Virus record (IMG/VR): IMGVR_UViG_3300033148_004507
From: a virus
Taxonomy: Duplodnaviria; Heunggongvirae; Uroviricota; Caudoviricetes
Length of the DNA stretch: 64,000 nt
Direction: 5' to 3' (one strand)
Part shown: piece by piece, positions 3,001 to 32,348 of the stretch
Layout of the letters: every line of letters starts with the position of its first letter
Position numbering within the stretch: the stretch's first letter is position 1
Translations under genes and position numbers: made by a program
Notes under the pieces: generated by a model
Told to the model about the DNA's origin: nothing
What the model saw: only the letters and a program-made list of their open reading frames with translations
Database searches by the model: none

Positions 3001-3382
3001 AACGAATGGTGTTGCTGTACTGGATGGTACGGGGTCAATAGATTCGGATGGCTCGATAATAAATTATACTTGGGAATTCACATATAATGGAAGCCAGGTT
3101 AACTTATGGGGCATTGCACCTCAGTTCAATTTCGCTATTGACGGCACTTACGATGTTGTACTGACTGTCACAGACAATGATGAACTAATTGGAATTGGCA
3201 ACGTAACCATAACAGCCAATAGCATGATTCCCGATGGTGGTGGGGATGGTGGCGATGGGGATGGCAACACAACGAATACAATTGATAAAACAACCCTGTT
3301 GGCGATATTCGTAATAGTGGTATTGGGTATTCTGGTATTGTTCATAGCCATGAGGAGAAGTGAGGCACGAATGTTGGATTGA
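1..3382 (+). CDS. PKD-repeat cell-surface protein, 5' partial (frame open to window edge), C-terminal TM anchor
   Basis: 1118-aa ORF; ~12 tandem ~86-aa modules each with DGSGSxDxDGxIxNYTWxF...VTDxD signature (PKD/Ig-like); Gly/Asp-rich linker then hydrophobic helix LLAIFVIVVLGILVLFIAM + RR tail; no N-terminal signal peptide at GTG26 so true start likely upstream. Confidence 0.8.
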   Translation, partial: IYKGANQDVNGSDGFRDNSYITGSAGASTDHYPFMDWPIVVQRINADAGTDDIVYLGIHTFDGSGSNIVIGSITNYTWTFTDIVPQTLYDVSPIYDFSSLGDYNIMLTVTDGNGNYSFDNVTITVDDMITNAGPDQISKRLVTFDGSGSMDDGSIQNYTWSCTNYVGFTDLWGVNPSFDFNVSGIYYVMLTCEDDIGNLGYDNMTVTIIIISPVADMGLDQSWLREIHTLNGSSSYDSDGDIINYTWTFIDVIPQILYGINPQYDFTNLGNFEITLEITDNDWRVDTDTAWFNISNQLPMADAGPDQNTKRLVTFDGSGSDDSDGLIANYTWTFTYDSTPQELWGVSPVFDFNVSGIYDVMLTVMDNDGAMAFDNVTITISISPPVANAGTDQGTTKGTYVFDGLSSDDSDGSIVNYTWTFNYDGPIQELWGVSPSFDFDIDGIYTVMLKVTDDDWRSDYDNMSVIINYVNPIANAGIDQDTKRLVIFDGSGSDDPDGLIANYTWTFNYDGTPHELWGVSPMFDFNISGVYGVVLMVTDDNNLIDFDDVTITINIVEPIANAGLDQSGFKRLYSLDGSGSSDSDGLIVNYTWSFIYDGVPRTLYGINPSFEFNITGDYEITLNVTDDDWRCDDDVMWVHITNLNPIADAGMDYTTKRLVTLDGSGSSDPDGWITNYTWNFTYDGSFVELWGENPVFDFNIGGLYVIVLTVTDNDNSTSFHIMRLTIVIQTPVADAGLDQVGYKREYWLSGSSSYDSDGIIANYTWNFTYDGSPVVLVGMSPSFIFNITGTYEITLNVTDDDGRYATDTILIGVNNKLPVADAGPDRIAKRFVAFDGSGSSDSDGSIANYTWIFTFDGMQRVLWGISPIFDFNIGGVYAITLQVTDDDGDISVDSSKITTNILFPSANAGINQTGFSGVYCLNGSLSSDLDGVIVNYTWTFDDGGGRVLFGIYPQYDFHNTGSHEITLVVRDDDARMSVDTVYVDIIDRGYPIADAGLNQTTNGVAVLDGTGSIDSDGSIINYTWEFTYNGSQVNLWGIAPQFNFAIDGTYDVVLTVTDNDELIGIGNVTITANSMIPDGGGDGGDGDGNTTNTIDKTTLLAIFVIVVLGILVLFIAMRRSEARMLD
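390..3230 (+). repeat. in-frame tandem DNA repeats, period ~258 bp, ~11 full units (PKD modules)
   Basis: P[IV]A[DN]AGxDQ ... NYTW ... VTDDD blocks recur at ~258-bp spacing (approx. 397, 643, 900, 1156, 1417, 1675, 1935, 2195, 2455, 2713, 2975). Confidence 0.7.
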
Positions 3383-5813: not shown

Positions 5814-6223
5814 AAAGGGGGTCGGCCCAATATAAAAAATGGCGAGAATCTGTGTTGATTAGGGATGAATATACTTGTCAACATTGTGGATTTAAACCTC
5901 ATATCTTAGATATTGGTATCGTTGCTCACCATATATTAAATTATAAAACTTACCCTCTATACAGGTATGACTTGAATAATGGGTTAACATTATGTCATAA
6001 ATGTCATAGGAGACAACACCCAACCTGTATGGGTTCTAAATTTATTCTATATAAAAAAGTTATTGAATTTAAGAATGGCAAATGTGGTGTAGATGTACCG
6101 TTGCATTGGGCGGGAAGAAAGATATTGGTGTATAAAGTAGGTAAATATGGTTTAACTCTACCTACAAAAGATGAATGTATAATGATAGATTGCGGAGATA
6201 GTTATCTGGAAGGTGTGGAATGA
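5810..6223 (+). CDS. HNH endonuclease
   Basis: CQHCG...VAHHI...NNGLTLCHKCH: CxxC-HH-N-CxxCH HNH signature. Confidence 0.8.
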   Translation: MKRGSAQYKKWRESVLIRDEYTCQHCGFKPHILDIGIVAHHILNYKTYPLYRYDLNNGLTLCHKCHRRQHPTCMGSKFILYKKVIEFKNGKCGVDVPLHWAGRKILVYKVGKYGLTLPTKDECIMIDCGDSYLEGVE

Positions 6224-6957
6224 TGAAAATCGATACCAAGATAACTAAAATCATCAAGGATTCTGAGGTCATCAGCATCACCAATGTCGGTAGCCACTTA
6301 TGGGGTATGAACCACGAAAACAGTGATGTAGATTATGGTCTTATCTACGTGGCCCCAAGTAGAAACATATTGCGTGGCAATGCCTTCACAGAATCTAAGC
6401 AGGTTGAAATAGGTAATAATGATTGGACAATCCATGAGCTTGGAAAGACTGTGAACATGCTAATGAAAGGCAATGTAAACTATGTCTGGATTGTAACATC
6501 GCCGTTGTCTTTACTATCTACTCTTTATATCGAAGAATTAAAAAAATTATATTTGAATAATATGTCTGCTAACATTTATCACAATATCAAAGGATTGGCA
6601 AAACACAATTACAAGAAATATTTGGTTGAGGGGAGGCTAGCTGATGGTGAACCATATTCGAATCTTGATAAGAAACGAAAGATAATCATTCGCACTCTTA
6701 AATTCGGTATTAATCTACTGGATGGTAATGGGATAATATATGAGCCAGTGGAGGGCGAAGTTAACGATAATCTAGTTAGACAATTCATGGATAATCTGGA
6801 AAATGCATATGAGCATACATCATTGCCAGAGAATCCAGACCGTGAAAAATATTATGATTATTTGGAAGATGTAAGAAGATACTTGTGTCAGCGACCACTC
6901 CGTGACTGGCATTGGTCAGGAGATGACTCTGAGAACTCAGACTCATGCGTTGATTAG
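6220..6957 (+). CDS. Pol-beta superfamily nucleotidyltransferase (minimal-NTase/KNTase-like, 245 aa); last ~25 codons lie inside the IscB-element left end
   Basis: GSHLWGMNHENSDVDYG = GSx9-11DxD NTase motif; size and helical C-terminal half resemble KNTase-type enzymes. Confidence 0.6.
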   Translation: MMKIDTKITKIIKDSEVISITNVGSHLWGMNHENSDVDYGLIYVAPSRNILRGNAFTESKQVEIGNNDWTIHELGKTVNMLMKGNVNYVWIVTSPLSLLSTLYIEELKKLYLNNMSANIYHNIKGLAKHNYKKYLVEGRLADGEPYSNLDKKRKIIIRTLKFGINLLDGNGIIYEPVEGEVNDNLVRQFMDNLENAYEHTSLPENPDREKYYDYLEDVRRYLCQRPLRDWHWSGDDSENSDSCVD

Positions 6958-8339
6958 GAGGCGACAAGAAACATGAAAACTATGCAAAAGTTAGAAGGGC
7001 GAGATACATACACACCTACGGATGCTCCACAAGTCCGTAGCCACTGTGATTCTGTGATTAAACATGACTGCGAGGTAGGTGAAGTGTTACAGGATTTAAA
7101 AACCCTTTCTAACAACTCCGATGTGGACTTACTCCAGCATACAGGAGGGCTTAAGGCCACTGTGTATGCATATGTGCTAAACAAGAACGGGAAACCACTG
7201 ATGCCCTGCAAGCCTGCCAAAGCAAGGCATTTGTTGAAGGAAGGCAGGGCAGAGGTGGTCAATAGGACTCCCTTCACGATTCGCTTATTATGGGATTGTG
7301 AAGATAATGTGAAACCAATAACACTTGGCATCGATGCTGGATATGGCAAAGTTGGTTTTAGTGCCGTATCTGATAAGAAAGAATTGGTGTCTGGGGAACT
7401 GACTTTAAGGAAAGGCATCTCCAAACTGATAGAGCAGAGAAGTAACTATAGAAGGACACGAAGGAACAAACTCTGGCATCGGCCACCTAGATTCCTTAAC
7501 AGAGCTAAACATAAAGGCTGGCTTGCACCTAGCATCCAACACAAGCTTGACAGCCATGTAAGACTTATCGAACAGATGAAATCAATCTTGCCGATAACAA
7601 ATGTTATTGTCGAGGTTGCGAATTTTGACATCCAGAAGATAAAGAATCCAGACATTAAAGGAGTCGAATACCAACAAGGGGAGCAGATGGGCTTTTGGAA
7701 TGTTGGAATGTTCGAGAGTATGTCTTACACAGAGACAACCATACTTGTCAGCACTGTAAGGGTAAAAAGAAAGATAAGATATTACAGGTGCATCACATCA
7801 ATAGCAAGAAAGAGGGTGCTACAGATAGGCCAGAAGAGTTATTGACAGTCTGTAAGACCTGCCATGATGGGCATCATGATGGTATCGATATAATACCAAT
7901 GAAGGAAATCAAGAACTTCAAGCCAGAGACTTTCATGACGATGGTTCACTGGAAGCTCACAGAATTATTGGATTGTGAACACACGTTTGGTTATATCACA
8001 AAAACCAATAGAATTAAGCAAGGTCTTGAAAAGAGCCATGTCAATGATGCATTTATCATTGCGGGTGGGGCAAAGCAGGAACGGTGCTTGCCACATGATG
8101 TCAAGCAAGTAAGACGAAACAATAGGTCAATACAGATGAATCGAAAGGGTTACAAGCTAGCAATAAGAAGAAAAAGATATAAATTACAACCAAATGATTT
8201 AGTAAGGTTTGAGAGGGTCAAACGCCGAGTCAAAGGAGTACACTGTTATGGTTCAAGAGCAATATTAGATAATAAGAAATCAGTTGCAATAACTAAAATA
8301 AAGTTGATATGCTATGGTAAGGGGATATGTTATGTGTAA
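6880..8339 (+). mobile_element. IS200/IS605-type non-autonomous element carrying iscB (copy 1); left boundary approximate
   Basis: ~95 nt upstream of ATG 6973 (TCAxCGACCAC ... TCTGAGxAxTCAGACTxxTGCGTTGATTAGGAGGC) plus the entire ORF are repeated at 13230..14553; homology ends exactly at the stop codons; no tnpA present. Confidence 0.7.
6973..8339 (+). pseudogene. iscB: IscB (OMEGA RNA-guided nuclease, Cas9 ancestor), frameshifted by an 8-bp tandem duplication
   Basis: PLMP domain (NGKPLMPCKPAKARHL); RuvC-I ITLGIDAGYGKVGFSAV; Arg-rich bridge helix RSNYRRTRRNKLWHRPPRF; RuvC-II ITNVIVEVANFD; HNH CQHCKGK...QVHHIN...CKTCHDGHH; RuvC-III HVNDAFIIAGG. TGGAATGT duplicated at 7696-7703/7704-7711 splits the ORF into 6973..7845 and 7695..8339; removing one copy restores ...FWNVREYVLHRDNHTCQHC... 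in frame. Confidence 0.85.
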
Positions 8340-12663: not shown

Positions 12664-12713
12664 GACCGCAAAACTATTTATACTCGGAACCCCTACGATG
12701 TGACGGTGATAAC
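12664..12713 (+). promoter_or_regulatory. recurring promoter/RBS cassette: GACCGCAAAACTATTTATACT...GTGACGGTGATAACATG
   Basis: BRE/TATA-like AAAACTATTTATA ~35 nt upstream of ATG; GGTGAT SD 4 nt before ATG; one of ~8 copies in the window. Confidence 0.6.
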
Positions 12714-12932
12714 ATGACAGAAAATGGAAATAAATGTGAAGAACGATGCCCAACTTGTAATGAACTTTGCGAGATTGCAGAGGACAACCATAAAGTCTGG
12801 GTTGAAAAATACGGCCATGCAAAAGGCAGAACTATGAAAGGCCATTATCATTGGAATGGGACAAAGTTACATGAATGGGTCACATTTCCAGGGTGTGAAA
12901 AGGTGAACCAACAATGCCAAGAAGAAAATTAA
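12714..12932 (+). CDS. zinc-ribbon mini-protein
   Basis: ATG at end of promoter cassette; CEERCPTCNELCE. Confidence 0.55.
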   Translation: MTENGNKCEERCPTCNELCEIAEDNHKVWVEKYGHAKGRTMKGHYHWNGTKLHEWVTFPGCEKVNQQCQEEN

Positions 12933-13229: not shown

Positions 13230-14553
13230 GAGCTTGGTAAGGGTGAGTCAACGACCACACAGAACAGAAATGGTCTGGGGGCGAGTCTGAGCAATCAGAC
13301 TTGTGCGTTGATTAGGAGGCAATGAAAAGAATGAAAACCATGCAGAAGTTAGACGGGAGAGATACATACACACCTACGGATGCTCCACAAGTCCGTAGCA
13401 ACTGTGATTCTGTGATTAAACATGACTGCGAGGTAGGTCAAGTGTTACAGAGTTTGAAAACCCCGTCTAACAACTCCGATGTGGACTTACTCCAGCATAC
13501 AGGAGGGCATAATGCCACTATGTATGCATATGTTATAAATAAGAATGGAAAACCACTGATGCCCTGCAAACCTGCCAAAGCAAGGCATCTATTGAAGCAA
13601 GGTAGAGCCAAAGTAATCAACAGGAAGCCATTTACAATCCGACTATTATGGGATTGTGAAGATAATGTGCAACCGATTACGCTAGGCATCGATGCAGGCT
13701 ATAGCAAAGTTGGTTTCAGTGCCGTGTCTGAGAGTAAGGAATTGATGTCTGGGGAGCTAACATTACGAAAAGGCATCAATAAACTCATCGAGCAGAAAAG
13801 CAACTATAGAAGAACAAGACGGAATAAACTTTGGCATCGCCCACCGAGATTCCTGAACAGAGCCAAACCAAAAGGTCGCCTACCTCCGAGCATCCAACAT
13901 AAGCTCGACAGCCATATTAGGCTTGTCGAACAAATGAAAGCAATCCTGCCGATAACAAATGTTATTGTCGAGGTTGCGAATTTTGACATCCAGAAGATAA
14001 AGAATCCAGACATTAAAGGAGTCGAATACCAACAAGGGGAGCAGATGGGCTTTTGGAATGTAAAACCTGTCATGAAGAGCATCATGCGGGTATTGATATA
14101 ATCTCAGCAGTGGCAATCAAGAACTTCAAGCCAGAAACCTTTATGACGGTGGTTAATTGGAAGCTTACAGAACTATTAAATTGTGAGCATACCTTTGGCT
14201 ACATCACGAAGCATAATAGGATTAAGCAAGGTCTTGCAAAGAGTCATGTAAATGATGCGTTTATAATTGCAAGAGGTCATAGTCAGGGGCGATGCAAATA
14301 TTATGAAGTCAATCAAACGAGGAGAAATAATAGAAGCATACAATTGAATCGAAAAGGCTATAAACCATCTATCAGAAGAAAAAGATATAAGCTCCAATCC
14401 AATGACTTAATTAGAGATTCACAAAACAACACTGTTCTGAGAGCAAAGGGTGTATGCTCATATGGGCGGTCAATAAAATTGGAAGATGGGAGATATACAA
14501 ATGTTAAAAATATAAAATTAATATGTTATGGTAAAGGGATATGCTATATATGA
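13230..14553 (+). mobile_element. IS200/IS605-type iscB element (copy 2), left boundary approximate
   Basis: direct repeat of 6880..8339 (by-eye ~85% identity); preceded by a 200-nt noncoding stretch 13121..13321. Confidence 0.7.
13322..14553 (+). pseudogene. iscB: IscB copy 2, inactivated by ~139-bp out-of-frame deletion removing the N-terminal half of the HNH domain
   Basis: same PLMP/RuvC-I/bridge/RuvC-II as copy 1, then ...FWNV | KTCHEEHH...HVNDAFIIARG; CQHCKGK...QVHHIN segment absent; ORF split into 13322..14101 and 14053..14553 at the same TGGAATGT site as copy 1. Confidence 0.8.
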
Positions 14554-14632: not shown

Positions 14633-15052
14633 ATGGATGATTCAAATAATAAAAGTGAGTTAAGGGTTTCAGATAGGAAGTGGACAATTGTAGCCACATT
14701 ATTGGTGGTGATGTCATTGCTTATAATTAATTCATATTGGAATCCCAATCTGGAAGCGGAATACGAAGTGGAAATGGTCGAATATGAGCAAAAGCAGATT
14801 GAGATGGAAATAGAGTATGCAAATATAACCGATGCCTATGGTGAATATAGTTTTGAGGCAGTTACCTATAAGGAAATAATGGATGACGAATTGAATGTCA
14901 AGTCTTTACGTCTATTTATGCAATTGTTCGTGTGGATATTCATTGGTATATTTCTTATTATGATTGCCTATAAACAAGACATGTACTTGATTGATGATTG
15001 CGATGATGAGTTTGGCTTTGAAGATGACGATGATAGGTTGGTGGGGCCTTGA
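14633..15052 (+). CDS. membrane protein with acidic C-terminus
   Basis: two hydrophobic helices (WTIVATLLVVMSLLII; LFVWIFIGIFLIMIAY), DDCDDEFGFEDDDD tail. Confidence 0.5.
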   Translation: MDDSNNKSELRVSDRKWTIVATLLVVMSLLIINSYWNPNLEAEYEVEMVEYEQKQIEMEIEYANITDAYGEYSFEAVTYKEIMDDELNVKSLRLFMQLFVWIFIGIFLIMIAYKQDMYLIDDCDDEFGFEDDDDRLVGP

Positions 15053-15300
15053 AAGGTGTTGAAGCTGTAGTCAAATCCATGCTCTATGCACTGGTTGGTG
15101 TTATGGTAGTTATGGTTGTTATGTCATTCTACTTCATGTATTGCGCATATCGGGCATTTCAAATCGGAACCGATATTGGCAACTTTGTTGGTGGGGCATT
15201 GTTGGTACTGTCTGGGGCCATATTACTTGGGTCAATTGGAATCCAGCAATTTGTGTTCCCGTTGTTGGAGATTAAAACAGATGGTGGTGAAAAAGAATGA
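15049..15300 (+). CDS. small membrane protein
   Basis: 83 aa, 2-3 hydrophobic helices. Confidence 0.5.
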   Translation: MKGVEAVVKSMLYALVGVMVVMVVMSFYFMYCAYRAFQIGTDIGNFVGGALLVLSGAILLGSIGIQQFVFPLLEIKTDGGEKE

Positions 15301-15773
15301 AAATCCCAGATAGAATAAACTATAGTGCCTTGAACTTTCCGATATGTAATTTCGTGGTTCTTGAGGAGGCTGAGAGGTTGATAATACCTGATTACCAGAG
15401 AGATTATATCTGGTCTGATACTCAGAAGGGGTTGTTGATAGATAGCATCTTTAAAAGCATACCGATTGGCAATATATTCCTTAACGAGAGGGGTGGCAGT
15501 CCAGCCTATGAAATTATTGATGGTCAGCAAAGACTTACTACACTATTTAAGTTCATGAATGATGAGTTTGCTTACCAGGATGTGTACTACAGTGAATTGC
15601 CAGATAAGTACACTGCGAGGATAAGTCATTTCGTAGTCCAGACTTATATCACTTACTACACAGATGTTAAGGACATCCTCAGATTGTATTATGTATTGAA
15701 TTGGGCAGGGACACAACATAATGTGGAGGAGATGATTAAGCTTAAGAGGCAGGCGGGTGAAGAGGATGGATGA
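15297..15773 (+). CDS. DUF262 (ParB-like, GmrSD N-terminal-type) domain protein, stand-alone
   Basis: IIPDYQRDYIWSDTQKGLLIDSIFKSIPIGNIFL...EIIDGQQRLTTLFKF: canonical PxYQRxYxW and DGQQR motifs; no DUF1524/HNH nuclease partner domain. Confidence 0.8.
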   Translation: MKIPDRINYSALNFPICNFVVLEEAERLIIPDYQRDYIWSDTQKGLLIDSIFKSIPIGNIFLNERGGSPAYEIIDGQQRLTTLFKFMNDEFAYQDVYYSELPDKYTARISHFVVQTYITYYTDVKDILRLYYVLNWAGTQHNVEEMIKLKRQAGEEDG

Positions 15774-15920
15774 AAAAAGCTATGATGCGACAATTAGAAT
15801 TGTAAACGAAAAGTGCGGTGAAGTCTTTAATTGCCAGGGTGTTACAGGGATATTAGGATTTAACAGAGAGGCTGGAAGCTGTGGAACGTTACATTGATAG
15901 GGATGGCTGACTGAGATTAT

Positions 15921-15970
15921 GATAGCAAAACTATTTATACTGAGAACGCATACAAAGTGACGGTGATAAC
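15921..15970 (+). promoter_or_regulatory. promoter/RBS cassette copy (GATAGCAAAACTATTTATACT...GTGACGGTGATAACATG)
   Basis: same cassette as 12664, 24856, 36584, 42045. Confidence 0.6.
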
Positions 15971-16096
15971 ATGGCAGGAAACAACGAAACAATAAACATT
16001 GGCGACCTTCCCGTAATAATTACGGAGGAAGAGGCTGAAGCAATAATCGGACTGTATGAGCATCATATTAAGGTAGTTATGTCTGGAGGAGTTTGA
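15971..16096 (+). CDS. 41-aa leader ORF (not in ORF track)
   Basis: ATG 15971 at end of promoter cassette; MAGNNETINIGDLPVIITEEEAEAIIGLYEHHIKVVMSGGV; TGA 16094-16096 overlaps ATG 16097. Confidence 0.45.
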   Translation: MAGNNETINIGDLPVIITEEEAEAIIGLYEHHIKVVMSGGV

Positions 16097-18289
16097 ATGA
16101 GCATATATGATGAATTGGGCATTGAGCCAGAGCAGATAGACAAAGAGGCCAAGATTGGGCATCCAACAGAGACAATAGTGAACGGCGAGAGGGTGCTGGA
16201 CTTTCCAGTATCTTATTTCTATAAAGGGAAAGTAAAAAATTTCGAATTGCGAGTAGTTCCAGACAAGCAGATTTCCACAGTTACCGATAAGAAACCAGGG
16301 GACGATGACCTAATGGAAACGGAGATATTAGCTCTTGGTATGACTCATAATGAGATATTGGATTTTTTCCCACCGTACAATGCCAAATCACCATACCCAT
16401 TCACACTGAAAGCGATTATAAGGAGCATAATCTTCGAGGCATTTGTTAACCGAGATGTGAACCATCTGGCTGGCGGTATGGTGAGAGCATTCTGGTATAC
16501 TCATTTGATTCATGTTATAGAGAACATACTTGGTCTTGGAGAAACAGATGTTGTCAAATCGACCATCAACCAGGCTTGGGAGGACTTGATAACCAGTGGT
16601 TTGGTCACATACGATGGGATGAACATCAGGTCAGATAGCGAAGGTTCGACACACTATCGAGTCAAGGACAGTCCTTTCTCCAACTTGATAATTGCGGTTG
16701 AGAAGGATGATAAATTCGAATATATGAAGTGGATGCCTCGGTTGTTTAACTGCACACTGATGACTGCTGGCGGTCAACCTAGTAGAGCGAATGCCAGACG
16801 ATTCATCATGGATATTCGAGATAAGGCCAGGATAAATTTGAACCAAACATTCTATATGTGCGTAATATCTGACTTAGACCCTGCTGGATACTACATCCAG
16901 AGAAGCTTTAAGAACCAGTTGGAGAAGGCTATTCAATATTACGGCGGTACTGGCAAGATAGAAATCAAGAGGTTATTCGTTGGAAAAAACCAAGTCACAC
17001 AATCATTGTTGGAGCATGATGCGATTCCTTGCTATGATAAGGGTAAGTCAGATAAGGCAAAGAAGGCAGAGAATACTAAATGGGATTATTTCTGTGAGCA
17101 GACGAATGGTGGAATCTATAAGAATGTGCCGAGAAGTGTTGCACTGAGTCTTGGGGCTATTGGCCCGAATGAGCATGTTGATTCTGAAACTGTGAGGGTT
17201 CGTGCCAAATTGGAATTGAACGCATTCCCTGACCACATCATCAATGATAGGGTCATCAAGGAGCTTCTGAAAATCATCGAGGAGACATCTGATGAGAGCT
17301 TGATTATGATTCCAGAGATTATGCGAATCTTCGAAGAAGAGAGGGAAAATGCGATGCAGGAGATTTACGAGAGGGAGCATAAGGTCAAGATTGCACCTTT
17401 CATTAGGAATTTCTTAAGGGACATTGACATTGAGCAGATGAGGAAGAGAAATCTTACTAGGGATGAAAGCCAGAAGGTTGAGGATGAGTTTGAGGAACTA
17501 AAAGAAGAGGTCGAGGAGCCATTCAAGGAACGAATTGAGGAACTTGAGGAAGAGGCCGATGAGAGAGTTCCAGACGAGCTTGCAGAGAAGAAACGGTTAG
17601 AGGACTTGATTATAGGGCTTGCAGACAAGCTTGATGATGTTAAAGAGGACATCAGGGAAAAGACCCAAGACCTTCTTGACGACATTGAAGAGCAGGAACG
17701 TGAGATGGAAGCTGAGATGATGCCTCACGAAGCAGAACGGGATGAGAAACTGGAAGATATTCAGAATAAGGGGGAATATAGGCAGGAGGAGCTTGAGAAG
17801 TTCAAGCGAGAGAAGGAGACGTTGTTCAACCCGATAGAGAAAGCGTTGATGAAAACTATTAAGGACTTGGTTAAACAGGATAATCTTGAGTTCTTCTTTG
17901 ACGATTTGGAGGCTGATAGGAAAACCAGGGGTCACATATCCAAATTGATACACGACCCGACTGCTTTGCTGGATGAGGAGATGCCTTGTCTGGAGCATGT
18001 CTATCCAGTATTCAAGGAGAAGGATTTGTTGAGGAAGGCTAGTGACGAGCAGATGGAGAATGTGGAGGCACACAGGCGAGGCTTCACCACAGATTTCTTA
18101 GAGGATATGCGACAATTAGTTCACCAGGGGGTCGAAGATAGAGGTTTCGAATTCGAGGTTCGAGAGATTGGTGAGTTGGAGGACTTTTCTGATGAACTCA
18201 TAGAGCTTGTCGAGCAAATTGAAAAGGACATCGAGAACGGTCTGTATAAGGACGATGATGATGGTGACGAGGGGGCTGGCGAATGGTAA
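16097..18289 (+). CDS. Spo11/TopoVI-A-like (putative 5Y-CAP + Toprim, Mini-A/JetD-type) protein fused to a ~400-aa acidic coiled-coil
   Basis: LIIAVEKDDKFEYMKW...LMTAGGQPSRANARRFIMDI...FYMCVISDLDPAGYYI = VEKD / GxP..RRF / DxDPxGxxI Toprim signature of TopoVI-A/Spo11; upstream VRAFWYTHL is a candidate R-x-h-F/Y-Y catalytic-Tyr motif; residues ~330-730 are E/D/K-rich heptad-like. Confidence 0.6.
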   Translation: MSIYDELGIEPEQIDKEAKIGHPTETIVNGERVLDFPVSYFYKGKVKNFELRVVPDKQISTVTDKKPGDDDLMETEILALGMTHNEILDFFPPYNAKSPYPFTLKAIIRSIIFEAFVNRDVNHLAGGMVRAFWYTHLIHVIENILGLGETDVVKSTINQAWEDLITSGLVTYDGMNIRSDSEGSTHYRVKDSPFSNLIIAVEKDDKFEYMKWMPRLFNCTLMTAGGQPSRANARRFIMDIRDKARINLNQTFYMCVISDLDPAGYYIQRSFKNQLEKAIQYYGGTGKIEIKRLFVGKNQVTQSLLEHDAIPCYDKGKSDKAKKAENTKWDYFCEQTNGGIYKNVPRSVALSLGAIGPNEHVDSETVRVRAKLELNAFPDHIINDRVIKELLKIIEETSDESLIMIPEIMRIFEEERENAMQEIYEREHKVKIAPFIRNFLRDIDIEQMRKRNLTRDESQKVEDEFEELKEEVEEPFKERIEELEEEADERVPDELAEKKRLEDLIIGLADKLDDVKEDIREKTQDLLDDIEEQEREMEAEMMPHEAERDEKLEDIQNKGEYRQEELEKFKREKETLFNPIEKALMKTIKDLVKQDNLEFFFDDLEADRKTRGHISKLIHDPTALLDEEMPCLEHVYPVFKEKDLLRKASDEQMENVEAHRRGFTTDFLEDMRQLVHQGVEDRGFEFEVREIGELEDFSDELIELVEQIEKDIENGLYKDDDDGDEGAGEW

Positions 18290-21444: not shown

Positions 21445-22553
21445 TGGCTGGAACCAGGCACTCATCGAAATTCTTCAAGCCTACTGAGAAGTTCTTGCAT
21501 TGGTTCAAGGGCTATGTTGGTAACACTCCCGTTACAGATGCAGGCTGTGGTACGGGCCACTTCGCCAAGGCTCTGAATGAAATCGGAGTGATAAAGATTC
21601 TCGGTCTTGAGATTTGGCCGTGTTCGAATCCAGAATACGATACAATCATTGGGCAGGATGCGACAACGTTTGCCTATTCACCAGGCTCTATAGTTACTAT
21701 AGTGCGACCAAATAGGGGTGAATGGATTCATAAGACCATAGAACAAGCCCTCTACACTGCCGAGCAGGTTGTGTACATCGGCTTGCCAAAGCATTGGGAG
21801 GATGACATCAGACCTTTGATTGGCGAATACGACATGTGGGATATTGTCGATAAGTATCTTCATGAACCTGTGGGTGAGGATGGCGAGTATGCTTACATCA
21901 TCAAGAAGAAGTCTGGCAACCCTAAAGAACCGATTATGCAACCTGTTATTGTAGAAGAGCCTGAAGAAACCTATCTGCCTCCAGTGAGGGGGATGATGAG
22001 GAAGAAAGATGCCCCTCCCAAATACATCCGAAAGCCAGCCAGCAAGAAAGGCAAGCCGTGTACTAAGTGTGGTGGTGAAAAATATTACGATGACGATAAT
22101 CCAGACGGCATGTGGTGTTATAACTGTGGTCTTGTAAACGTAACTGGCCTGAATTACAATGAAAAGTTCGATTTCAGTGAATATGAAAACGATGATGACG
22201 ATGGGTATTATTTGATTGGTGGTCGGAAAATCCAAATCCAGACCCTACTTAATTATCTCAGATTCAGAAGAGGGTCTGGGGCAGAACGTGTACTGTATCA
22301 CAAACTTGTACTGCTGGAGGCTGGCTTTGGGGAAAGGCATGGCGATAGCGATTACGATGTAGAAATAAGACGTAATAATAATTGGGTAGATTACTTCGAG
22401 AAGTGGATTGAAGCTTATATGGGCGACCCTCTTGGGGATATTGCATGGGAAAAGGCGAATCTTGATTATTGCTCGAAGTGTAACAAGGAAATTAAATTCG
22501 GGGATGCTAGGATGAACTATCCTTCAGGTGTTGTATGCATGGAGTGTGGATAA
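21420..22553 (+). CDS. class-I SAM-dependent methyltransferase domain fused to Cys-rich zinc-ribbon regions
   Basis: VTDAGCGTGHFAKAL (motif I) ... ILGLEI (motif II acidic); CTKCGGEKYY...CYNCG and CSKCNKE...CMECG; no DPPY/NPPY DNA-MTase motif IV seen. Confidence 0.6.
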   Translation: MASGVDTMMAGTRHSSKFFKPTEKFLHWFKGYVGNTPVTDAGCGTGHFAKALNEIGVIKILGLEIWPCSNPEYDTIIGQDATTFAYSPGSIVTIVRPNRGEWIHKTIEQALYTAEQVVYIGLPKHWEDDIRPLIGEYDMWDIVDKYLHEPVGEDGEYAYIIKKKSGNPKEPIMQPVIVEEPEETYLPPVRGMMRKKDAPPKYIRKPASKKGKPCTKCGGEKYYDDDNPDGMWCYNCGLVNVTGLNYNEKFDFSEYENDDDDGYYLIGGRKIQIQTLLNYLRFRRGSGAERVLYHKLVLLEAGFGERHGDSDYDVEIRRNNNWVDYFEKWIEAYMGDPLGDIAWEKANLDYCSKCNKEIKFGDARMNYPSGVVCMECG

Positions 22554-23224
22554 TGCAGAAATACTCTAAACCTTTGAGGATAAAGCATCATAAAATAAAT
22601 CTCAATCCTAAGAAGAGATACCTGGGTGACTCAGACGTTAAGAAACTACTCTCTGGAAAGGTCTATGTTGAGGAGAAGCTAGATGGCTCTCAGTGTGGGA
22701 TTGCGTTCAAGGGTGGCAAGCCAATCGTGTATACGAGAAATAGTCACTTATCAGAGTATGATAAAAGGGTGGCCTTCAAGGGTCTTTGGGATTGGGTATG
22801 GTCTAACTTAGATAAGGTTGAGAGCATACCGAAGGGATGTAGGCTGTGTGGGGAGTGGCTGTATGTTCAGCATCATGTTGTCTACGATAAGCTCCCAGAC
22901 TACTTTATGGCATTTGATATTCTGGATGAGAGGACTGGTAAACTATTGCCGTATAAGTCTAAGGTTGCCATATTCGAGGCTCTTGGAATTTCATATGCTC
23001 CACTTGTTTTAGAAGGCATGGCTACTAAAGATGATATTTTTGAGGCATCTCAGGGGTTCAGCAATTTCAGTACGGTGGATGCCAGAGAGGGCGTGGTTGT
23101 CAAGTCCGACAAGTCTGATTTCACAGGAAAACTTGTAGCCCAAGAATTTCTGGACGGCATTGAGGATGTCGGGCATTGGACATCTATAGTCACTGCGAGA
23201 TTTAATAAATTAGGGGTGGTATAG
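22553..23224 (+). CDS. minimal nucleotidyltransferase of the ATP-dependent ligase/capping-enzyme superfamily (RNA-ligase-like)
   Basis: motif I EEKLDGSQ (KxDG), motif III/IV region CGEWLY...FMAFDI, motif V EGVVVKSDKS; TAATG start at 22553. Confidence 0.6.
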   Translation: MQKYSKPLRIKHHKINLNPKKRYLGDSDVKKLLSGKVYVEEKLDGSQCGIAFKGGKPIVYTRNSHLSEYDKRVAFKGLWDWVWSNLDKVESIPKGCRLCGEWLYVQHHVVYDKLPDYFMAFDILDERTGKLLPYKSKVAIFEALGISYAPLVLEGMATKDDIFEASQGFSNFSTVDAREGVVVKSDKSDFTGKLVAQEFLDGIEDVGHWTSIVTARFNKLGVV

Positions 23225-24855: not shown

Positions 24856-24905
24856 GACAGCAAAACTATATATACTTTGGATGTATACTATGTGATGGTG
24901 ATAAC
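24856..24905 (+). promoter_or_regulatory. promoter/RBS cassette copy (GACAGCAAAACTATATATACT...GTGATGGTGATAACATG)
   Basis: directly precedes ATG 24906 (MTGDK...). Confidence 0.6.
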
Positions 24906-26213
24906 ATGACAGGCGACAAATTATTTGAATCGGAAAAGACGGAGAACGGATACCTAATCCGCTTCCCGAAGCACAAGCTGGATGACTTTGTGGAAGGTAT
25001 AACTCCTATCCAGAACAAGGCCAAGAAGCTAGGTCTTGGCGAGATAACTTACGAAGTTATTGAAACTTATGATGTAGGCACACCAATTACCATACAGTCT
25101 TGGAAGAGAGATTATGAGATGACTGTCAGGGTCAGGTGGGTTGCAGTTAAAATTATAGGGGAACCGCCAGTTCTTGACGGTTGGAAATTCATCGCATCAA
25201 TGGATGCTTCTGATGAGTTTGGAGTTCTTATTAGGAAGATACCTGACGAGGATGAGGTCATACCTGTCAAATATCTTAAGGACGGTGGAAATCCACGACT
25301 CTGTGAGCAATGCAACAGGAACACGCCACGAAGCAAGTTATACATCGTCAAGAACGTTGAAACAGGGGAATGGAGGCAGGTTGGTTCGACCTGCTTGAAA
25401 GACTTCATAGGTAATGTCACCCCATCCGAGATTGCACAATACTGGCATCTCTTGTATTATGTGGCAGAGGGTTCAAGCGATATGTTTGGTGGCGGGGGAT
25501 TTAGGGAATACGCCAAGCACAATCTTGTGGAATATCTGACTTATGCAAATATGCAGATTCGAAATCACGGATACTTATCAGTCACAAGAGCCGAGGAGCT
25601 TTCAGATATGCTTCGCAGAATCTCGCCGACCTGCGAAATCATTGATTCCATATTACAAACGATACACACAAAGGATAATAATTATGACCATTCAGTGAAT
25701 CCAATCACGATGGACGACTATGTGAAAGCAGAGCAGGTCATCGATTGGGCAATGGAGCTTTCAGATGTGGTGTGCGAGAAGAGTACCTACATGGCAACAA
25801 TTAGGACGATTGCTCAATCTGGCAAAGTACCTTCAAGGCACATGGGGTATGTGGCATCTATGATAAATTCACACACCAAACACCTCTCAGACATGAAGAG
25901 GCTGGACAAAGTTTACGAATATCTGGATGTGGAAGTTGGTGTCAGGTTCGACATTGATGGGGCCGAGGTCATTGGAATCAGGTCATTTGAAAGTCGGTTC
26001 GGAACAACATTCATCTACGACATGGCAAAGGGGAATAACCTCTTTGTCTGGTTCACTGGCAATGAAGGCATGATGGCTCTGGGGGACACGGTATCATTCA
26101 GGGCGACATTGAAGAAGTTCGATGACTATAAGGGCTTGAAGCAGACTGTTGTGACCAGGGCCAAGGTCACGGTGACAAAGGAGGCATTCAAGCTATCTGG
26201 GGGTGAGTCTTAA
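24906..26213 (+). CDS. hypothetical protein, N-terminus MTGDK shared with 36635 and 42095 genes
   Basis: 435 aa; CEQCNRN...GSTC zinc-binding pair. Confidence 0.55.
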   Translation: MTGDKLFESEKTENGYLIRFPKHKLDDFVEGITPIQNKAKKLGLGEITYEVIETYDVGTPITIQSWKRDYEMTVRVRWVAVKIIGEPPVLDGWKFIASMDASDEFGVLIRKIPDEDEVIPVKYLKDGGNPRLCEQCNRNTPRSKLYIVKNVETGEWRQVGSTCLKDFIGNVTPSEIAQYWHLLYYVAEGSSDMFGGGGFREYAKHNLVEYLTYANMQIRNHGYLSVTRAEELSDMLRRISPTCEIIDSILQTIHTKDNNYDHSVNPITMDDYVKAEQVIDWAMELSDVVCEKSTYMATIRTIAQSGKVPSRHMGYVASMINSHTKHLSDMKRLDKVYEYLDVEVGVRFDIDGAEVIGIRSFESRFGTTFIYDMAKGNNLFVWFTGNEGMMALGDTVSFRATLKKFDDYKGLKQTVVTRAKVTVTKEAFKLSGGES

Positions 26214-28106: not shown

Positions 28107-28628
28107 ATGAAAACACTGAAGCGGATTCTATTCATCTCAGACGATTTCCCTGGGGATAGGTGGGAAGATAAAAAAGAGGACTGTGAGCCTGGTGATTACT
28201 TCTTTGGCGGTGGCGATGATGAGGCCAACTGGCTTAGATTTGAGTTCCATCTGATTGAGAGTTTTAAAGAACTCACACCAGAGGGGTTCGATGCGGTCTT
28301 AGTGGATTATGGTCTAGTCAATGATGCTAAGAATATGAAGGTATTAGAGAGGATGTGCAAGGATAATATCCCAATCGCCTGGGTCAGCGGTTTTGATAGT
28401 TGGTGCAATGCAGATGCCAAGGATAACTTCCCAGGATTTCCATTATTGTATAATTTGCCGACATCATGCATCGGAGATGATGACATACTGATACTACTAT
28501 ACGAAATATTCAGAGAAAATAAAGATAAAATAGGAGGAATAAAATATGTTGAAGAACGAAAATGGAATAGTGAGCAGGGAGATGAATGCAATGGCAATGG
28601 GGGGGTCAGGCCATGTTTGATGATATGA
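28107..28628 (+). CDS. hypothetical protein
   Basis: 173 aa. Confidence 0.5.
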   Translation: MKTLKRILFISDDFPGDRWEDKKEDCEPGDYFFGGGDDEANWLRFEFHLIESFKELTPEGFDAVLVDYGLVNDAKNMKVLERMCKDNIPIAWVSGFDSWCNADAKDNFPGFPLLYNLPTSCIGDDDILILLYEIFRENKDKIGGIKYVEERKWNSEQGDECNGNGGVRPCLMI

Positions 28629-29500
28629 GTGGCGAGAACAAGACCATCGTGATGATTGTGGCTTTGGTCGTGGTCGTGGCACTGGTCGTAACGTTCTTTA
28701 GCTCCATGATAGTGAACGTGGGGGCTGGACACAAGGCGATTGTCACAGACGGTTTCGATGTTGGTAGAACGTTTCATGAAGGCTGGAATGTGAAGAACCC
28801 GATGTCTGGAGTAACTAAGGTTCGTTATAACACTCAGGAAGTGACCGAGATTATCTCAGTCAGAGCCGAGGATGGCTATAACGTGGATGTTGACTGGACG
28901 ATTCGGTATCATCTACTTGAGTCCGAGGTATCAACTATACAGATTGAGAACCCTGATTATGTGTCTACTACGATTTCTCCAGAACTAAGGAGTATAGCTC
29001 GTAAGGTGGTATCCGATAATAACTGGACTGGTGAGATGCTAAACAGGGAGAAAACATTCTATGAGGATGCAGTCAGTGATATGCTTACAGATAGGCTACT
29101 TGATTACGGCATAGTGGCCGAGGCTATATTGATACGGAACTTGAATTTCCCTGCGACTGTGAATCAAGCATGGCAAGATAGAGCATCTGCTGAAGTTAGT
29201 GTAGAAACCGCAGAATTCAAGCTTACCGAGGCTGACTTGTTAGCACAGCAGGAGATTGTGATTGCCGAATCGGAGGCGAATGCGACTATCGTACTTGCGA
29301 TTGGTCAGGCAGAAGCACTGAGTATATTGGCTGGAGAAACAGACAGTCTCGACAACGGAACGATGAACTATATATTGAGTTTGAAGTACATCCAGATGTT
29401 GCGTGACCCAGAAACCAATGTCGAGTTCGTACTGGTGACGGATGGCACTACCAATCCATTTATACTGGACTTGCCAGAGTTGGGCGAGGAGGCTCCATAG
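28613..29500 (+). CDS. SPFH/band-7 (stomatin/prohibitin-like) membrane protein
   Basis: N-terminal TM (IVMIVALVVVVALVVTFF) then VNVGAGHKAIVTDGFDVG ... Ala/Glu-rich helical tail; ATG 28613 in-frame in track ORF 28586. Confidence 0.6.
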   Translation: MFDDMSGENKTIVMIVALVVVVALVVTFFSSMIVNVGAGHKAIVTDGFDVGRTFHEGWNVKNPMSGVTKVRYNTQEVTEIISVRAEDGYNVDVDWTIRYHLLESEVSTIQIENPDYVSTTISPELRSIARKVVSDNNWTGEMLNREKTFYEDAVSDMLTDRLLDYGIVAEAILIRNLNFPATVNQAWQDRASAEVSVETAEFKLTEADLLAQQEIVIAESEANATIVLAIGQAEALSILAGETDSLDNGTMNYILSLKYIQMLRDPETNVEFVLVTDGTTNPFILDLPELGEEAP

Positions 29501-29969: not shown

Positions 29970-30329
29970 ATGGGTGAGGATGATAAGATTGAGAGGGGCG
30001 AAGTGATTCATCTGGTGCTAACGATTGTAGTTGTGATAGTTATGGCATTGGTTACTTGGGGATTCTTCAATTTCATGGAAGATAGGATGGCAGAGCCAGA
30101 ATATACGGAATATGATTTCGCATTAGGTAATACGACAGTAAAATATAATGGCGAGACTCTGAAAATCAAAATCAGAGACGAAGGCTACTATAAGATTTCA
30201 AAAGTTTATGAGAAAACCAATTCTTCAGAACATTGGTCGGGATGGGATTTAGGGGAAGCTCCACTCGATGAAAGAATAAATGGGGTTAATGTCGTTGAGG
30301 GTTACCAACGAGAAGTTAATTGGTACTAA
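29970..30329 (+). CDS. membrane-anchored protein
   Basis: ATG 29970 right after upstream TGA; TM helix VIHLVLTIVVVIVMALVTWGFF. Confidence 0.5.
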   Translation: MGEDDKIERGEVIHLVLTIVVVIVMALVTWGFFNFMEDRMAEPEYTEYDFALGNTTVKYNGETLKIKIRDEGYYKISKVYEKTNSSEHWSGWDLGEAPLDERINGVNVVEGYQREVNWY

Positions 30330-30348
30330 TTAGCTAAAAACTAATTGG
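30317..30348 (+). promoter_or_regulatory. cluster of palindromic CTAATTAG-family sites (TTAATTGG, CTAATTAG, CTAATTGG)
   Basis: at the transition from + strand array to minus-strand island; same motif family at 35745-35865 and 60656-60735. Confidence 0.45.
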
Positions 30349-30355
30349 TAGATAT

Positions 30356-30775
30356 TTATTTTCCGCCCTTGTTTGTGACGATTCTCTTTTTTATGTATGG
30401 ACAGCCCCTATTGATGATATACAAATCATCTCTTCCCCAATAATCATTTTTACATTGAGTATTATACAAAGGTTTGTGTGTGAAAATCAAAAAATTTTCA
30501 ACATCTCTAATTAATAATTTGGTGATTCTTTGATAATCTGATTTCTCAATATACCCTAACCAGAAAGATAATCCTTGTGTATTCATATCAAAATCTCGTA
30601 GGTTATTTTTAATTTCAGCAACCACATCCATGTGGTAGGCAATACCCATGTAGATTATTCCTCGCCCTCTTTGAAAAGCATAGAAATATGCATCCTCATA
30701 TTCTCTCAATTTACTATATGGTACTTTCACCCAATTAAGTGTCATTCCCTTTTTTGGTTTCACTTTTATTTTCAT
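30356..30775 (-). CDS. hypothetical protein (minus strand)
   Basis: start chosen at MKIKVKPKK preceded (in minus sense) by GGTGAGAGGTGG SD; track ORF extends to 30871. Confidence 0.45.
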   Translation of the reverse strand: MKIKVKPKKGMTLNWVKVPYSKLREYEDAYFYAFQRGRGIIYMGIAYHMDVVAEIKNNLRDFDMNTQGLSFWLGYIEKSDYQRITKLLIRDVENFLIFTHKPLYNTQCKNDYWGRDDLYIINRGCPYIKKRIVTNKGGK

Positions 30776-30921
30776 ATTCCACCTCTCACCGATATATGGA
30801 TGAGAAGCGAAAGGCATTTGGGGAAAGAGAATGGCTTGAATAATTAACAATAATAATTCTCCGCCCCTCACTTCTCAACATATGCATAATTTCGCACAAT
30901 ATAAATGTTTTTGACCATTTA

Positions 30922-31680
30922 TTAAGGCAACTCTTTTCTACAGCTCCCACAGAAATTGTAACCATTTGGATTGGTATCTCCGCAATACGGGCAAAACTTG
31001 TCTATCTTATCGTCTCCAGGTACTAAATTATCATTGTCGTCTATCTTATCATCATCGTACTCTTCCTCTGGTAATCCATATTTTGCAATAAGCTCTGCAC
31101 CAACTGAAACAAGAATTCCACCTATGACACATAGCACCCATCCATATCTTAAGCCTAGTATACTCATTGCTTCGCCAAATGAAATGTCATTAGAAAGAGA
31201 AACAATGTAGAATCCATGTATTAAAACACCTTGGGAAATCAAAGCGATTAAGAATCCTCCAAGATATAGCAATCTACACACATAATATTCTCTTACGGAT
31301 AGAACAATCATGAATAGTATGGCACATAATCCTGCAATCATTGGTAAAAAGTCAAGATACCAGATGTCAAAATAAAGACCAATATTCCATCCAGTAATCC
31401 CACCATAAATTCCATTATAAAATGGCTCAGACATCCCTCTAAAGAATAATATGATTCCAAAGAAGCCAACAGCAGTGCCTATCACAAGAAAAATTGGAGT
31501 TTCTCTATCACCAAAAACTATAGTCTCTTCTTTGACAGACTCATCAGATACAATCATTAAAAACCCAAATATACATAAAAGAAATGATATAGGAAAACTA
31601 ATGTCTACCCACCAGAATAAAAGGCATATTACTGCTAATATAAACATGAATGACCCGATTATACCCAGTTTAATCCTCAT
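30922..31680 (-). CDS. polytopic membrane protein with C-terminal zinc ribbon
   Basis: 6-7 TM helices; C-term FCPYCGDTNPNGYNFCGSCRK; GGTGA SD upstream. Confidence 0.6.
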   Translation of the reverse strand: MRIKLGIIGSFMFILAVICLLFWWVDISFPISFLLCIFGFLMIVSDESVKEETIVFGDRETPIFLVIGTAVGFFGIILFFRGMSEPFYNGIYGGITGWNIGLYFDIWYLDFLPMIAGLCAILFMIVLSVREYYVCRLLYLGGFLIALISQGVLIHGFYIVSLSNDISFGEAMSILGLRYGWVLCVIGGILVSVGAELIAKYGLPEEEYDDDKIDDNDNLVPGDDKIDKFCPYCGDTNPNGYNFCGSCRKELP

Positions 31681-31694
31681 CTCTTCACCGTAAC

Positions 31695-32324: not shown

Positions 32325-32348
32325 CTAATCGCCTAATGCTGGAAAACT

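Follow-up and report, generated by a model that had tools for sequence, protein, structure and literature searches.

The gene at 16097..18289 (+ strand) of the window, the 64,000-nucleotide stretch of viral DNA analysed here, encodes a 730-aa protein that we read from its sequence, its predicted structure and analogy as a long form of Topo mini-A, the virus-borne branch within the Top6A/Spo11/Topo VIII-A/Mini-A superfamily; it is probably a dimeric, tyrosine- and Mg2+-dependent DNA cleaver for viral DNA metabolism, with the DUF262 gene beside it independent, and we give this reading a probability of roughly 0.6. The kind of protein is known; what is new is the long form with its extra domains. 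The assignment draws on the ORF call, homologues, a structural model and profiles, and a strong Shine–Dalgarno sequence, GGAGGAG, lies upstream of the gene.

Placement among type IIB topoisomerase A subunits

We place residues ~81–397 in the type IIB topoisomerase A-subunit superfamily, where the family profile, fold searches and an AlphaFold model of high confidence all put them. The AlphaFold2 monomer model (pLDDT 87.8, pTM 0.75) had Top6A (1d3y_B) as its best PDB match in Foldseek, with a probability of 0.99, and a profile of the N-terminal part matched Top6A alone among 177,635 PDB sequences (E 3e-5 and 0.064), bearing out the initial annotation's assignment of a TopoVI-A/Spo11-type Toprim. 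Single-sequence searches of the whole protein against Pfam, PHROGs, NCBIfam, PADLOC and PDB returned coiled-coil noise alone (OmpH, ZorA, tape measure), and the BFVD viral fold library gave no significant match to it; tblastn of the N-terminal part gave no matches in 50,697 GenBank phages or 72,556 plasmids (PLSDB), blastn of the region found nothing related, and none of the 85 homologues of 620–765 aa has a Pfam match.

The signatures of the superfamily were found in the protein: a Toprim glutamate with DxDxxG, an R-x-x-(F/Y)-Y 5Y-CAP motif upstream of them, and a T2BI box of the form R/K-x-E-x-x-A/S-x. A 5Y-CAP-like helical region (aa 84–167; 16346..16597, + strand) contains VRAFWY (129–134), earlier proposed as a possible 5Y-CAP motif, with R130 and the candidate catalytic Y134 (codon 16496–16498); in the predicted model this motif sits in helix 129–144, 68 residues ahead of E202. 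V129, R130, W133 and Y134 are invariant in 71 of 71 sequences, and F132, T135 and H136 reach 90% conservation or more across the same set and are invariant in its 20-sequence subsets A2 and A3; this conservation, together with the alignment of V-R130-x-F-W-Y134 to lR.fWY of the Mini-A-like profile (RxxWY or RxxYY in Mini-A-like proteins), argues that the proposal was right.

The Toprim domain (aa 197–372; 16685..17212, + strand) carries VEKDD (201–205), GGQPSR (225–230) and DLDPAG (259–264), whose residues vary little or not at all among the 71 homologues. D259, G264 and E373 are, like R130 and Y134, invariant in the 71 homologues; E202 and D261 are found in at least 90% of them, with E202 invariant in the 20-sequence subsets. 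The T2BI box, a motif of the dimer interface by which type IIB A subunits are defined (PMC7671362), was located by conservation and hhalign at RAKLELNAF (aa 369–377; 17201..17227, + strand), where E373 and F377 do not vary and R369, A370 and A376 hardly do. It reads KLELNAF in the window protein, LLEMNAF or LLEMDAF in the family consensus and GLELDAL in short intermediate relatives, and in hhalign it falls on the GLELDAL (lElDAl) box of Mini-A-like proteins.

The closest known group is Topo mini-A, as the initial annotation had supposed; its example is the 301-aa protein of Listeria phage LWP01 (CP011103.1, 6070–6975; Takahashi et al. 2020, PMC7671362). Among 1.84 billion representatives searched there were 295 relatives, which grade in size from 650–765 aa through 500–680 aa to 300–500 aa; the shortest carry RxxFY, DYDPxG and GLELDAL motifs and are directly similar to the canonical LWP01 Mini-A, whose own motifs are RQVYY, VEKD, DHDPSG and SWELDAL. 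Aligned with a Mini-A-like profile in hhalign, the family gave a probability of 99.96% (E 7e-39) over 267 columns that include the T2BI box; a Mini-A-seeded profile scored the window protein at 98 bits, and the family profile scored Top6A at 26 bits. By profile the protein appears closer to Mini-A than to Topo VI, through a link that is transitive and runs through intermediates themselves gathered with the family profile. Compared directly, the family and canonical Mini-A show little similarity: the A3 profile scored the LWP01 protein at 0.8 bits, and hhalign of the family against that single sequence produced a spurious alignment, a profile of Mini-A-like proteins being required. A 71-aa Top6A fragment, used as a query for Top6A homologues, returned two fragments.

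Like Topo mini-A, the window protein is an A subunit encoded alone by a virus or mobile element, with no GHKL partner, an RxxF/Y-Y tyrosine motif, a Toprim E with DxDxxG and an ELDA/ELNA-type T2BI box, and the cores are co-linear over those 267 profile columns. Unlike it, the protein is over twice the length (730 aa, family 620–765, versus ~300 aa), adds an N-terminal beta domain, an acidic coiled coil of ~190 aa and a C-terminal domain, has a 35–60-residue Toprim insert before the T2BI box, and there reads LELNAF (LEMNAF in the family) in place of the published signature xWELDAL. Among solved structures, Topo VI A and Spo11 (PDB 1d3y, 2zbk, 2q2e) match best, and no other PDB sequences were hit; they have the catalytic residues and T2BI logic in common with the window protein; identity, however, is 17–20%, and the window protein lacks a Top6B or TOPOVIBL partner and an N-terminal 5Y-CAP segment of the B-subunit-binding kind, while its coiled-coil tail has no counterpart in them. 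Topoisomerase VIII (Gadelle et al. 2014, PMC4117785) is likewise encoded by mobile elements, has a C-terminal extension and carries an N in its T2BI box (RVELNAM versus LELNAF), a box that LELNAF resembles as much as it does the Mini-A signature; but it is a B–A fusion with an N-terminal GHKL ATPase, whereas the window protein begins with a five-stranded beta domain and has no GHKL match in Pfam or NCBIfam.

Proposed cleavage and candidate roles

By analogy with Top6A and Spo11, two copies would pair through the Toprim/5Y-CAP/T2BI interface; Y134, positioned by R130, would attack the DNA backbone while E202, D259 and D261 hold Mg2+, and the result would be a 5'-phosphotyrosyl break that is then resealed or processed. 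Such an enzyme would probably serve initiation or restart of viral replication, recombination, or the topology and decatenation of a large genome.

The family is kept as a single gene, with no fixed partner, in ~100 metagenomic viral or mobile-element lineages, on contigs of up to 231 kb; these look viral, with tightly packed co-oriented genes and one IMG/VR match. All-versus-all BLAST clustering with targeted tblastn recovered only antisense shadow ORFs and lineage-specific genes as shared neighbours, and one homologue locus (L043) has just the Toprim gene in common with the window, its other ORFs having no Pfam matches. The initial annotation saw no B subunit. Our scan of ~50 window ORFs, which took in most of those on the + strand with 150 aa or more, found no GHKL/Top6B-like domain, and there was none among the called genes of the homologue loci for which these were listed. 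Annotated neighbours in relatives include DNA/RNA ligases, PAPS reductase and UDG. MAG bin labels of the homologues conflict (Cloacimonadota, Zixibacteria, Heimdallarchaeota), and one family member lies on a contig binned to a Heimdallarchaeota MAG.

A more specific role, in which the protein would be a replication initiator that nicks or breaks an origin site-specifically and stays covalently bound, in the manner of HUH endonucleases, seems to us rather unlikely. The same hypothesis has been stated for the Topo mini-A of Asgard skuldviruses (bioRxiv 10.1101/2021.07.29.453957), the Toprim gene comes second in a unit headed by a promoter both in the window and in a close relative (L038), and ligase and repair genes are near it in some relatives. 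Yet the contigs measure ~100–230 kb, unlike small circular replicons, the gene had no visible origin-like repeats next to it, and a role in topology or recombination fits equally, with nothing to separate them.

The protein could instead be a hydrolytic Toprim nuclease of the JetD/MksG type, degrading host or competitor DNA without a covalent tyrosine intermediate. JetD and MksG of Wadjet/MksBEFG (PDB 8b7f) also have a Topo VI-A-type Toprim fold and no ATPase of their own, and the initial annotation had offered JetD as a comparison; we judge this reading unlikely. The 5Y-CAP catalytic tyrosine is absent from MksG and JetD (PMC10123090), whereas here the RxFWY motif is invariant, as is the T2BI glutamate, which in Top6A contacts the tyrosine, and the protein is 10% identical to MksG compared with the 17–20% to Top6A. 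JetD and MksG also work with an SMC complex; there were no SMC or Wadjet genes in the neighbourhoods examined and no PADLOC matches to JetD, MksG or Mks.

Domains added to the core

The preferred reading, a long-form Topo mini-A, has to accommodate domains on both sides of the core. At the N-terminus, the secondary structure of the model delimits a five-stranded beta domain (aa 24–79; 16166..16333, + strand) with only weak Foldseek matches, to SSB/OB folds (probability 0.54–0.57). Beyond the core, long acidic helices are predicted at aa 400–439, 441–490 and 492–592 (17294..17872, + strand), which in our reading of the model form a hairpin coiled coil that turns near ERVPDEL (489–495), with an invariant IPEIMRIF motif (405–412) at the predicted base; secondary structure and fold matches are the sole guide to how this hairpin packs and where the tail lies with respect to the active site. 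Model and conservation then define a small C-terminal helical domain (aa 601–713; 17897..18235, + strand), followed by an acidic disordered tail. The domain is predicted with pLDDT 83–97 and has conserved hydrophobic positions at L617, L624, F639, L645, F663 and F667; it matched no family and no fold.

The hairpin and C-terminal additions are specific to the family. Their likeliest task would be to keep the dimer together, to clamp DNA, or to control cleavage by gating or auto-inhibition, and in that sense they would take on a role of the Topo VI B subunit. It is conceivable, if a long shot, that they replace the ATPase B subunit outright, making the protein a self-contained single-chain type IIB DNA gate. 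It might then act as a topoisomerase that needs no ATP and has a second gate formed by the coiled coil, or as a Spo11-like enzyme, carried by a virus, that makes programmed double-strand breaks.

The acidity that the initial annotation saw in the helical C-terminal part is real. The last ~320 aa, predicted to form long helices, have a net charge per residue of -0.17, more acidic than 95% of window ORFs (5% quantile -0.11), and the property is kept across the family, with a mean net charge of -46. The protein is acidic throughout, which is unusual for a DNA enzyme; the window proteome is acidic overall too. Family-wide acidity would suit a catalytically silent scaffold or DNA mimic that works through its coiled coil, for instance by luring away host defence proteins that bind DNA, but the catalytic residues are all invariant or almost invariant in homologues ~33–78% identical to the window protein and from very different samples, which argues for selection on catalysis and makes a silent scaffold very unlikely. 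Mimicry and catalysis are not mutually exclusive.

The DUF262 neighbour and the meaning of the long form

The preceding gene, at 15297..15773 (+ strand), encodes a stand-alone, minimal DUF262 (ParB/GmrSD_N-like) protein of 158 aa that matches Pfam GmrSD_N/DUF262 (PF03235) with E 2e-25; the ORF list gives both genes where the initial annotation had put them. Its motifs are PDYQRDYIW (31–39), DGQQRLTT (75–82) and a third, LNWAGTQH (134–141). It has the (I/L)PxYQRxYxW, DGQQR and C-terminal LNxxG (ParB/Srx-like) motifs in common with the DUF262 N-terminal domains of GmrSD, BrxU and SspE, with phrog_1583 and with PADLOC NsnA, its best PADLOC match (E 2e-22). Unlike a GmrSD-type restriction enzyme, it stops at residue 158, with no DUF1524/HNH part, as had been noted earlier, or other effector domain. 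That full-length homologues of 158–186 aa exist, in a small clade of viral proteins, shows that the protein has not been truncated. The gene closes the preceding, mobile-element-rich transcription unit and, on the evidence of gene context, is an independent accessory gene, a chance neighbour of the Toprim gene and not its functional partner.

That the two genes form a defence or anti-defence nuclease or DNA-processing module, with DUF262 sensing NTP and the Toprim protein as effector, is barely credible and by gene-context data largely refuted. In its favour, the genes are adjacent on one strand, GmrSD, BrxU and SspE have nucleases that DUF262 domains control, and the best PADLOC matches of the DUF262 gene are defence proteins; but none of 38 loci carrying the Toprim protein has DUF262 by profile (23 of them with at least 1.5 kb upstream and 19 with at least 3 kb downstream), none of three loci with DUF262 orthologues has the Toprim protein, relatives 84% and 66% identical to the window protein lack DUF262, and a promoter cassette and another ORF stand between the genes. 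The pairing that the initial annotation proposed gives way to separate, promoter-defined units. A 689-aa protein near the DUF262 orthologue in locus L037, a candidate Toprim homologue by size, proved unrelated.

The intervening promoter/short-leader cassette, GCAAAACTATTTATACT...GTGACGGTGATAACATG (15914..15992, + strand), was identified as repeat family D4 and by pattern search, and ends in the start codon of a transcription unit's first gene. Its ~50-nt element has five copies in the window as D4 and four by pattern search, against none expected by chance, in agreement with the cassette noticed earlier; L038 has a similar AAAACTATATATA...GGTGAT..ATG at the head of an operon. The cassette resembles an archaeal BRE/TATA element; MAG host labels in the family conflict. 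The 41-aa ORF described as a leader does start at the cassette ATG, and its stop abuts the ATG of the Toprim gene (15971..16096, + strand, from the ORF list), but the ORFs upstream in L038 and L041, the closest relatives (84% and 66% identity), do not resemble it. 'Leader ORF' is therefore mere description, and the ORF is ruled out as a conserved coupled partner.

For annotation, a DUF262 and Toprim module should not be propagated, and ~300 clusters of 'hypothetical' proteins can now be named. Topo mini-A was described in 2020 and sits at the root of the debate on the origins of Topo VI, Topo VIII and Spo11; the literature shows a function for none and contains no biochemical data for any (PMC7671362; PMC11894792). 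The window gives a well-defined and deeply conserved long form, a ~320-residue core to which a conserved coiled-coil arm and a terminal domain are joined, with no partner gene. It also provides a soluble single-gene target with clear mutations to make: Y134F, E202A, D259A/D261A and deletion of the tail. This architecture suggests an A subunit that may work without a B subunit, by self-clamping, gating or auto-inhibition, and, should Asgard archaea turn out to be the hosts, the family would have a bearing on the source of Spo11 and Topo VI.

The Toprim gene and its relatives

The window is densely packed viral or MGE sequence at ~40% GC, with nearly all of its genes on the plus strand, and the two genes on which the initial annotation centred lie where it had placed them: a DUF262 gene at 15297-15773 (+) and, behind a GGAGGAG ribosome-binding site, a Toprim gene at 16097-18289 (+) encoding 730 aa. 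Used as a single query, the 730-aa protein had no meaningful match in Pfam, PHROGs, NCBIfam, PADLOC or the PDB sequences. Its N-terminal 420 residues retrieved 85 metagenomic protein clusters, nearly all of 620-732 aa and lacking any Pfam domain; the contigs that carry them reach 231 kb. When 71 of these clusters were aligned, the motifs picked out from sequence in the initial annotation proved to be the best-conserved positions of the protein. Numbered as in the window protein, the residues that never vary are V129, R130, W133, Y134, D259, G264, E373 and F377, and those that are nearly invariant are F132, T135, H136, E202, K203, L260, D261, P262 and Y265. The stretch G225-G-Q-P-S-R230 is also conserved, and E373 and F377 belong to a dimer-interface (T2BI) box, RA(K/L)LE(L/M)(N/D)AF. 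Type IIB A subunits are defined by a 5Y-CAP RxxF/YY tyrosine, a Toprim E/DxDxxG motif and the T2BI box (PMC7671362); all three are present in the 730-aa protein and strongly constrained in its family.

Searched against 177,635 distinct PDB sequences, an N-terminal profile of the family had two matches only, each to Top6A (E 3e-5 and 0.064), with E202, GGQPSR and DLDPAGY aligned to their Top6A counterparts; these exclusively Top6A matches, together with the conserved motifs, bear out the earlier recognition of a Spo11/Top6A-type Toprim. A similar profile found 295 proteins among 1.84 billion cluster representatives, and these are graded by length: scores are highest at 650-765 aa, lower in a middle group of 500-680 aa that likewise carries acidic helical tails (160-290 aa), and lowest in a large group of 300-500 aa (E 1e-19 to 1e-10). 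The short relatives have RxxFY ~125 residues ahead of DYDPxG and often a GLELDAL box; a Pfam topoisomerase domain was found in none of the ten scanned. By tblastn, one of them picked up a hypothetical protein of 301 aa in Listeria phage LWP01. Two dozen short relatives show direct similarity to this protein, which bears RQVYY, VEKD, DHDPSG and SWELDAL, the published hallmark motifs of Topo mini-A (PMC7671362). The link from the long family to the LWP01 Mini-A is transitive, the family profile alone scoring 0.8 bits on the LWP01 protein.

Two of the ten short relatives scanned (P0173 and P0198) have an N-terminal LytTR domain, and P0182, P0189 and P0197 share this arrangement as judged by layout; such fusion of a LytTR DNA-binding domain to the N terminus of a 5Y-CAP/Toprim core, in Mini-A-like relatives of ~470-510 aa, is another undescribed Mini-A architecture. 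Foldseek also returned, at rank 9, the BFVD entry A0A1P8DIJ1, an unnamed 732-aa viral protein nearly equal in length to ours; the match is weak (probability 0.72, 16% identity over 359 columns), and the entry may be a catalogued UniProt member of the family.

Because a GHKL domain was found neither in the 730-aa protein nor in ~50 scanned ORFs of the 64-kb window (most plus-strand ORFs of at least 150 aa), where no B subunit is visible, as first reported, the protein is neither Topo VI nor Topo VIII. The initial annotation had also pointed to JetD-type nucleases. MksG and JetD have the Toprim fold in common with the 730-aa protein, but the 5Y-CAP tyrosine is absent from them and they need an SMC complex (PMC10123090), whereas the family's tyrosine motif is invariant; since, in addition, PADLOC gives no JetD or MksG match and no SMC genes lie nearby, we reject this reading. 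The 730-aa protein fits best as a long-form Topo mini-A, in keeping with the Mini-A-like assignment first made and connected through the short intermediates to the LWP01 protein. Topo mini-A proteins are ~300 aa long with an xWELDAL signature, whereas ours departs from the description in both size and signature, and for this reason we rate it a variant and not a plain member.

Predicted fold and acidic tail

Structure prediction, which the initial annotation had proposed as a check, gave a confident AlphaFold2 model of the 730-aa protein with the family alignment as input (mean pLDDT 87.8, pTM 0.75). The model comprises a five-stranded beta domain (aa 24-79), a helical region (aa 84-167) that holds Y134 within helix 129-144, an alpha/beta domain (aa 197-372), three very long helices (aa 400-439, 441-490 and 492-592) and a small helical domain (aa 601-713). 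We read the three predicted helices as a hairpin coiled coil that would turn near ERVPDEL (489-495); a conserved LFNPIE (576-581) stands close to where the return helix ends, with a conserved C-terminal domain after it.

The tail beyond the invariant IPEIMRIF is acidic in 72/72 full-length homologues examined, these being the ones that carry the IPEIMR motif, with a mean net charge of -46 over ~310 residues and a D+E content of 29%. In the window protein it carries -0.17 charge per residue, which puts it beyond the 5% quantile even for this window, whose proteome is itself rather acidic. The acidic coiled-coil fusion described at the outset is upheld by the predicted long helices and by tail charge across the 72 homologues. 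The tail might pack so as to touch the active site, whether as a DNA mimic or as an auto-inhibitor.

The DUF262 gene and its surroundings

The 158-aa product of the DUF262 gene matches Pfam GmrSD_N/DUF262 (E 2e-25), phrog_1583 and phrog_2598 in PHROGs and, in PADLOC, two models of defence proteins, NsnA and PD-T4-2_A. Because it has the motif set PDYQRDYIW, DGQQRLTT and a third motif, LNWAGTQH, and homologues of equal length (158-186 aa, the nearest 67% identical), it is a complete minimal DUF262 protein and not a fragment of a GmrSD enzyme.

The two genes had been proposed to form a module, with a neighbourhood survey to follow; that survey spoke against it. We collected 38 loci with a family member and flanks of up to 10 kb (at least 1.5 kb upstream in 23, at least 3 kb downstream in 19), and a 49-sequence DUF262 profile, which recovers 4/4 positive controls at E < 1e-56, found nothing in six-frame translations of any of them. 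Over the 35 loci in the set at that stage, tblastn with the window DUF262 protein and a scan for (D/E)GQ(Q/H/N)R were equally negative, and none of three loci carrying DUF262 orthologues holds a family member. The nearest relatives (84% and 66% identity) have different small genes upstream of the Toprim gene. In the window itself, the interval between the two genes holds an ORF of 46 aa, one copy of a ~50-nt cassette and an ORF of 41 aa, and the region upstream of the DUF262 gene is accessory, made up of an IscB element with its omega RNA and the genes for two small membrane proteins. Because of these locus searches, the orthologue loci, the separating elements and the accessory stretch, we regard the adjacency as incidental.

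In L040 (512-2486), a contig of a related virus, the gene immediately ahead of a DUF262 orthologue (67% identity) encodes a GHKL-like protein of 483 aa. This protein matches HATPase_c_3 weakly and carries an N-box, ELIQNAWDE, and a HELGHEH motif near its C terminus; the two genes may be a pair, and the GHKL-like protein has no homologue in the window. A NADAR gene lies near the DUF262 orthologue of another contig (L037), and a NADAR domain protein is also encoded in the window, at 55558-56028.

Two IscB/OMEGA-type elements occupy 6887-8339 and 13247-14553 (+), and in each a HEARO (omega) RNA (Rfam RF02033; 90 and 105 bits) precedes an RRXRR ORF with a PLMP motif, behind which lies an HNH ORF. 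The two copies are 73-88% identical, and in both the ORFs overlap in different frames; the shift may be a conserved trait, or else both copies are frameshifted pseudogenes. Between the second element and the DUF262 gene, 14633-15300 (+) encodes the two predicted membrane proteins, one of 139 aa that is among the window's most acidic ORFs and one of 83 aa with a weak DUF996 match. A low-GC island at 30000-36000 (0.34-0.36 vs ~0.42 elsewhere), with reversed GC skew, three genes on the minus strand and a DDE transposase of the IS4/IS5 type (33639-35141; DDE_Tnp_1 + DUF772), is likely an insertion. Further genes encode an 1118-aa PKD-repeat protein (26-3382), an RlaP-like nucleotidyltransferase (6220-6957) and an SPFH/Band 7 protein (28586-29500).

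Promoter cassette, host and proposed role

The ~50-nt cassette occurs 4-5 times in the window vs 0 expected, at 12668-12716, 15925-15973, 24860-24908 and 42049-42097, with a variant at 36578-36656; in a related contig (L038, 9040-9094), the corresponding unit has a similar sequence at its head. Every copy ends in the start codon of a unit's first gene, with the layout CAAAAC-TATTTATA, ~22 nt, GGTGAT-N3-ATG and a conserved promoter/short-leader pattern, GCAAAACTATWTATACT-N9-TAC..GTGAYGGTGATAAC-ATG. A sigma-70 scan found no good -35/-10 pair inside the cassette, which fits a bacterial promoter no better than an archaeal BRE/TATA promoter with a short leader. Because its layout resembles an archaeal BRE+TATA box ~22 nt ahead of SD-ATG, there is a hint that the host could be an archaeon. 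One family member (56% identity; match 2168-3223) lies on a 16-kb contig (L043, BPTK01000079.1) binned to the Candidatus Heimdallarchaeota MAG 7H_bin4, from a Shimokita sediment study describing Asgard MGEs with Topo mini-A; short family contigs carry the bin labels Cloacimonadota and Zixibacteria, which makes MAG binning unreliable here. The window also encodes many small zinc-ribbon proteins.

No gene is linked consistently to the long Mini-A across homologue loci; annotated neighbours, where there are any, include an NAD-dependent DNA ligase, RNA ligase, PAPS reductase and UDG. The window's own RNA ligase gene (22535-23224) lies ~4 kb downstream of the Toprim gene.

Published work states the functions of Mini-A as unknown (PMC7671362; PMC11894792), and a replication-initiator role has been suggested for Mini-A in Asgard skuldviruses (bioRxiv 10.1101/2021.07.29.453957). 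The long-form subfamily, which the papers we consulted do not describe, is a variant of a functionally unexplored kind. As its best-supported mechanism we infer a homodimeric, Mg2+-dependent enzyme that would cleave DNA through its tyrosine and possibly rejoin it. The coiled-coil arm and terminal domain would stand in for the missing B subunit by stabilising the dimer, by forming a DNA clamp or gate, or by inhibition, and the target of the long Mini-A would be the virus's own DNA transactions.
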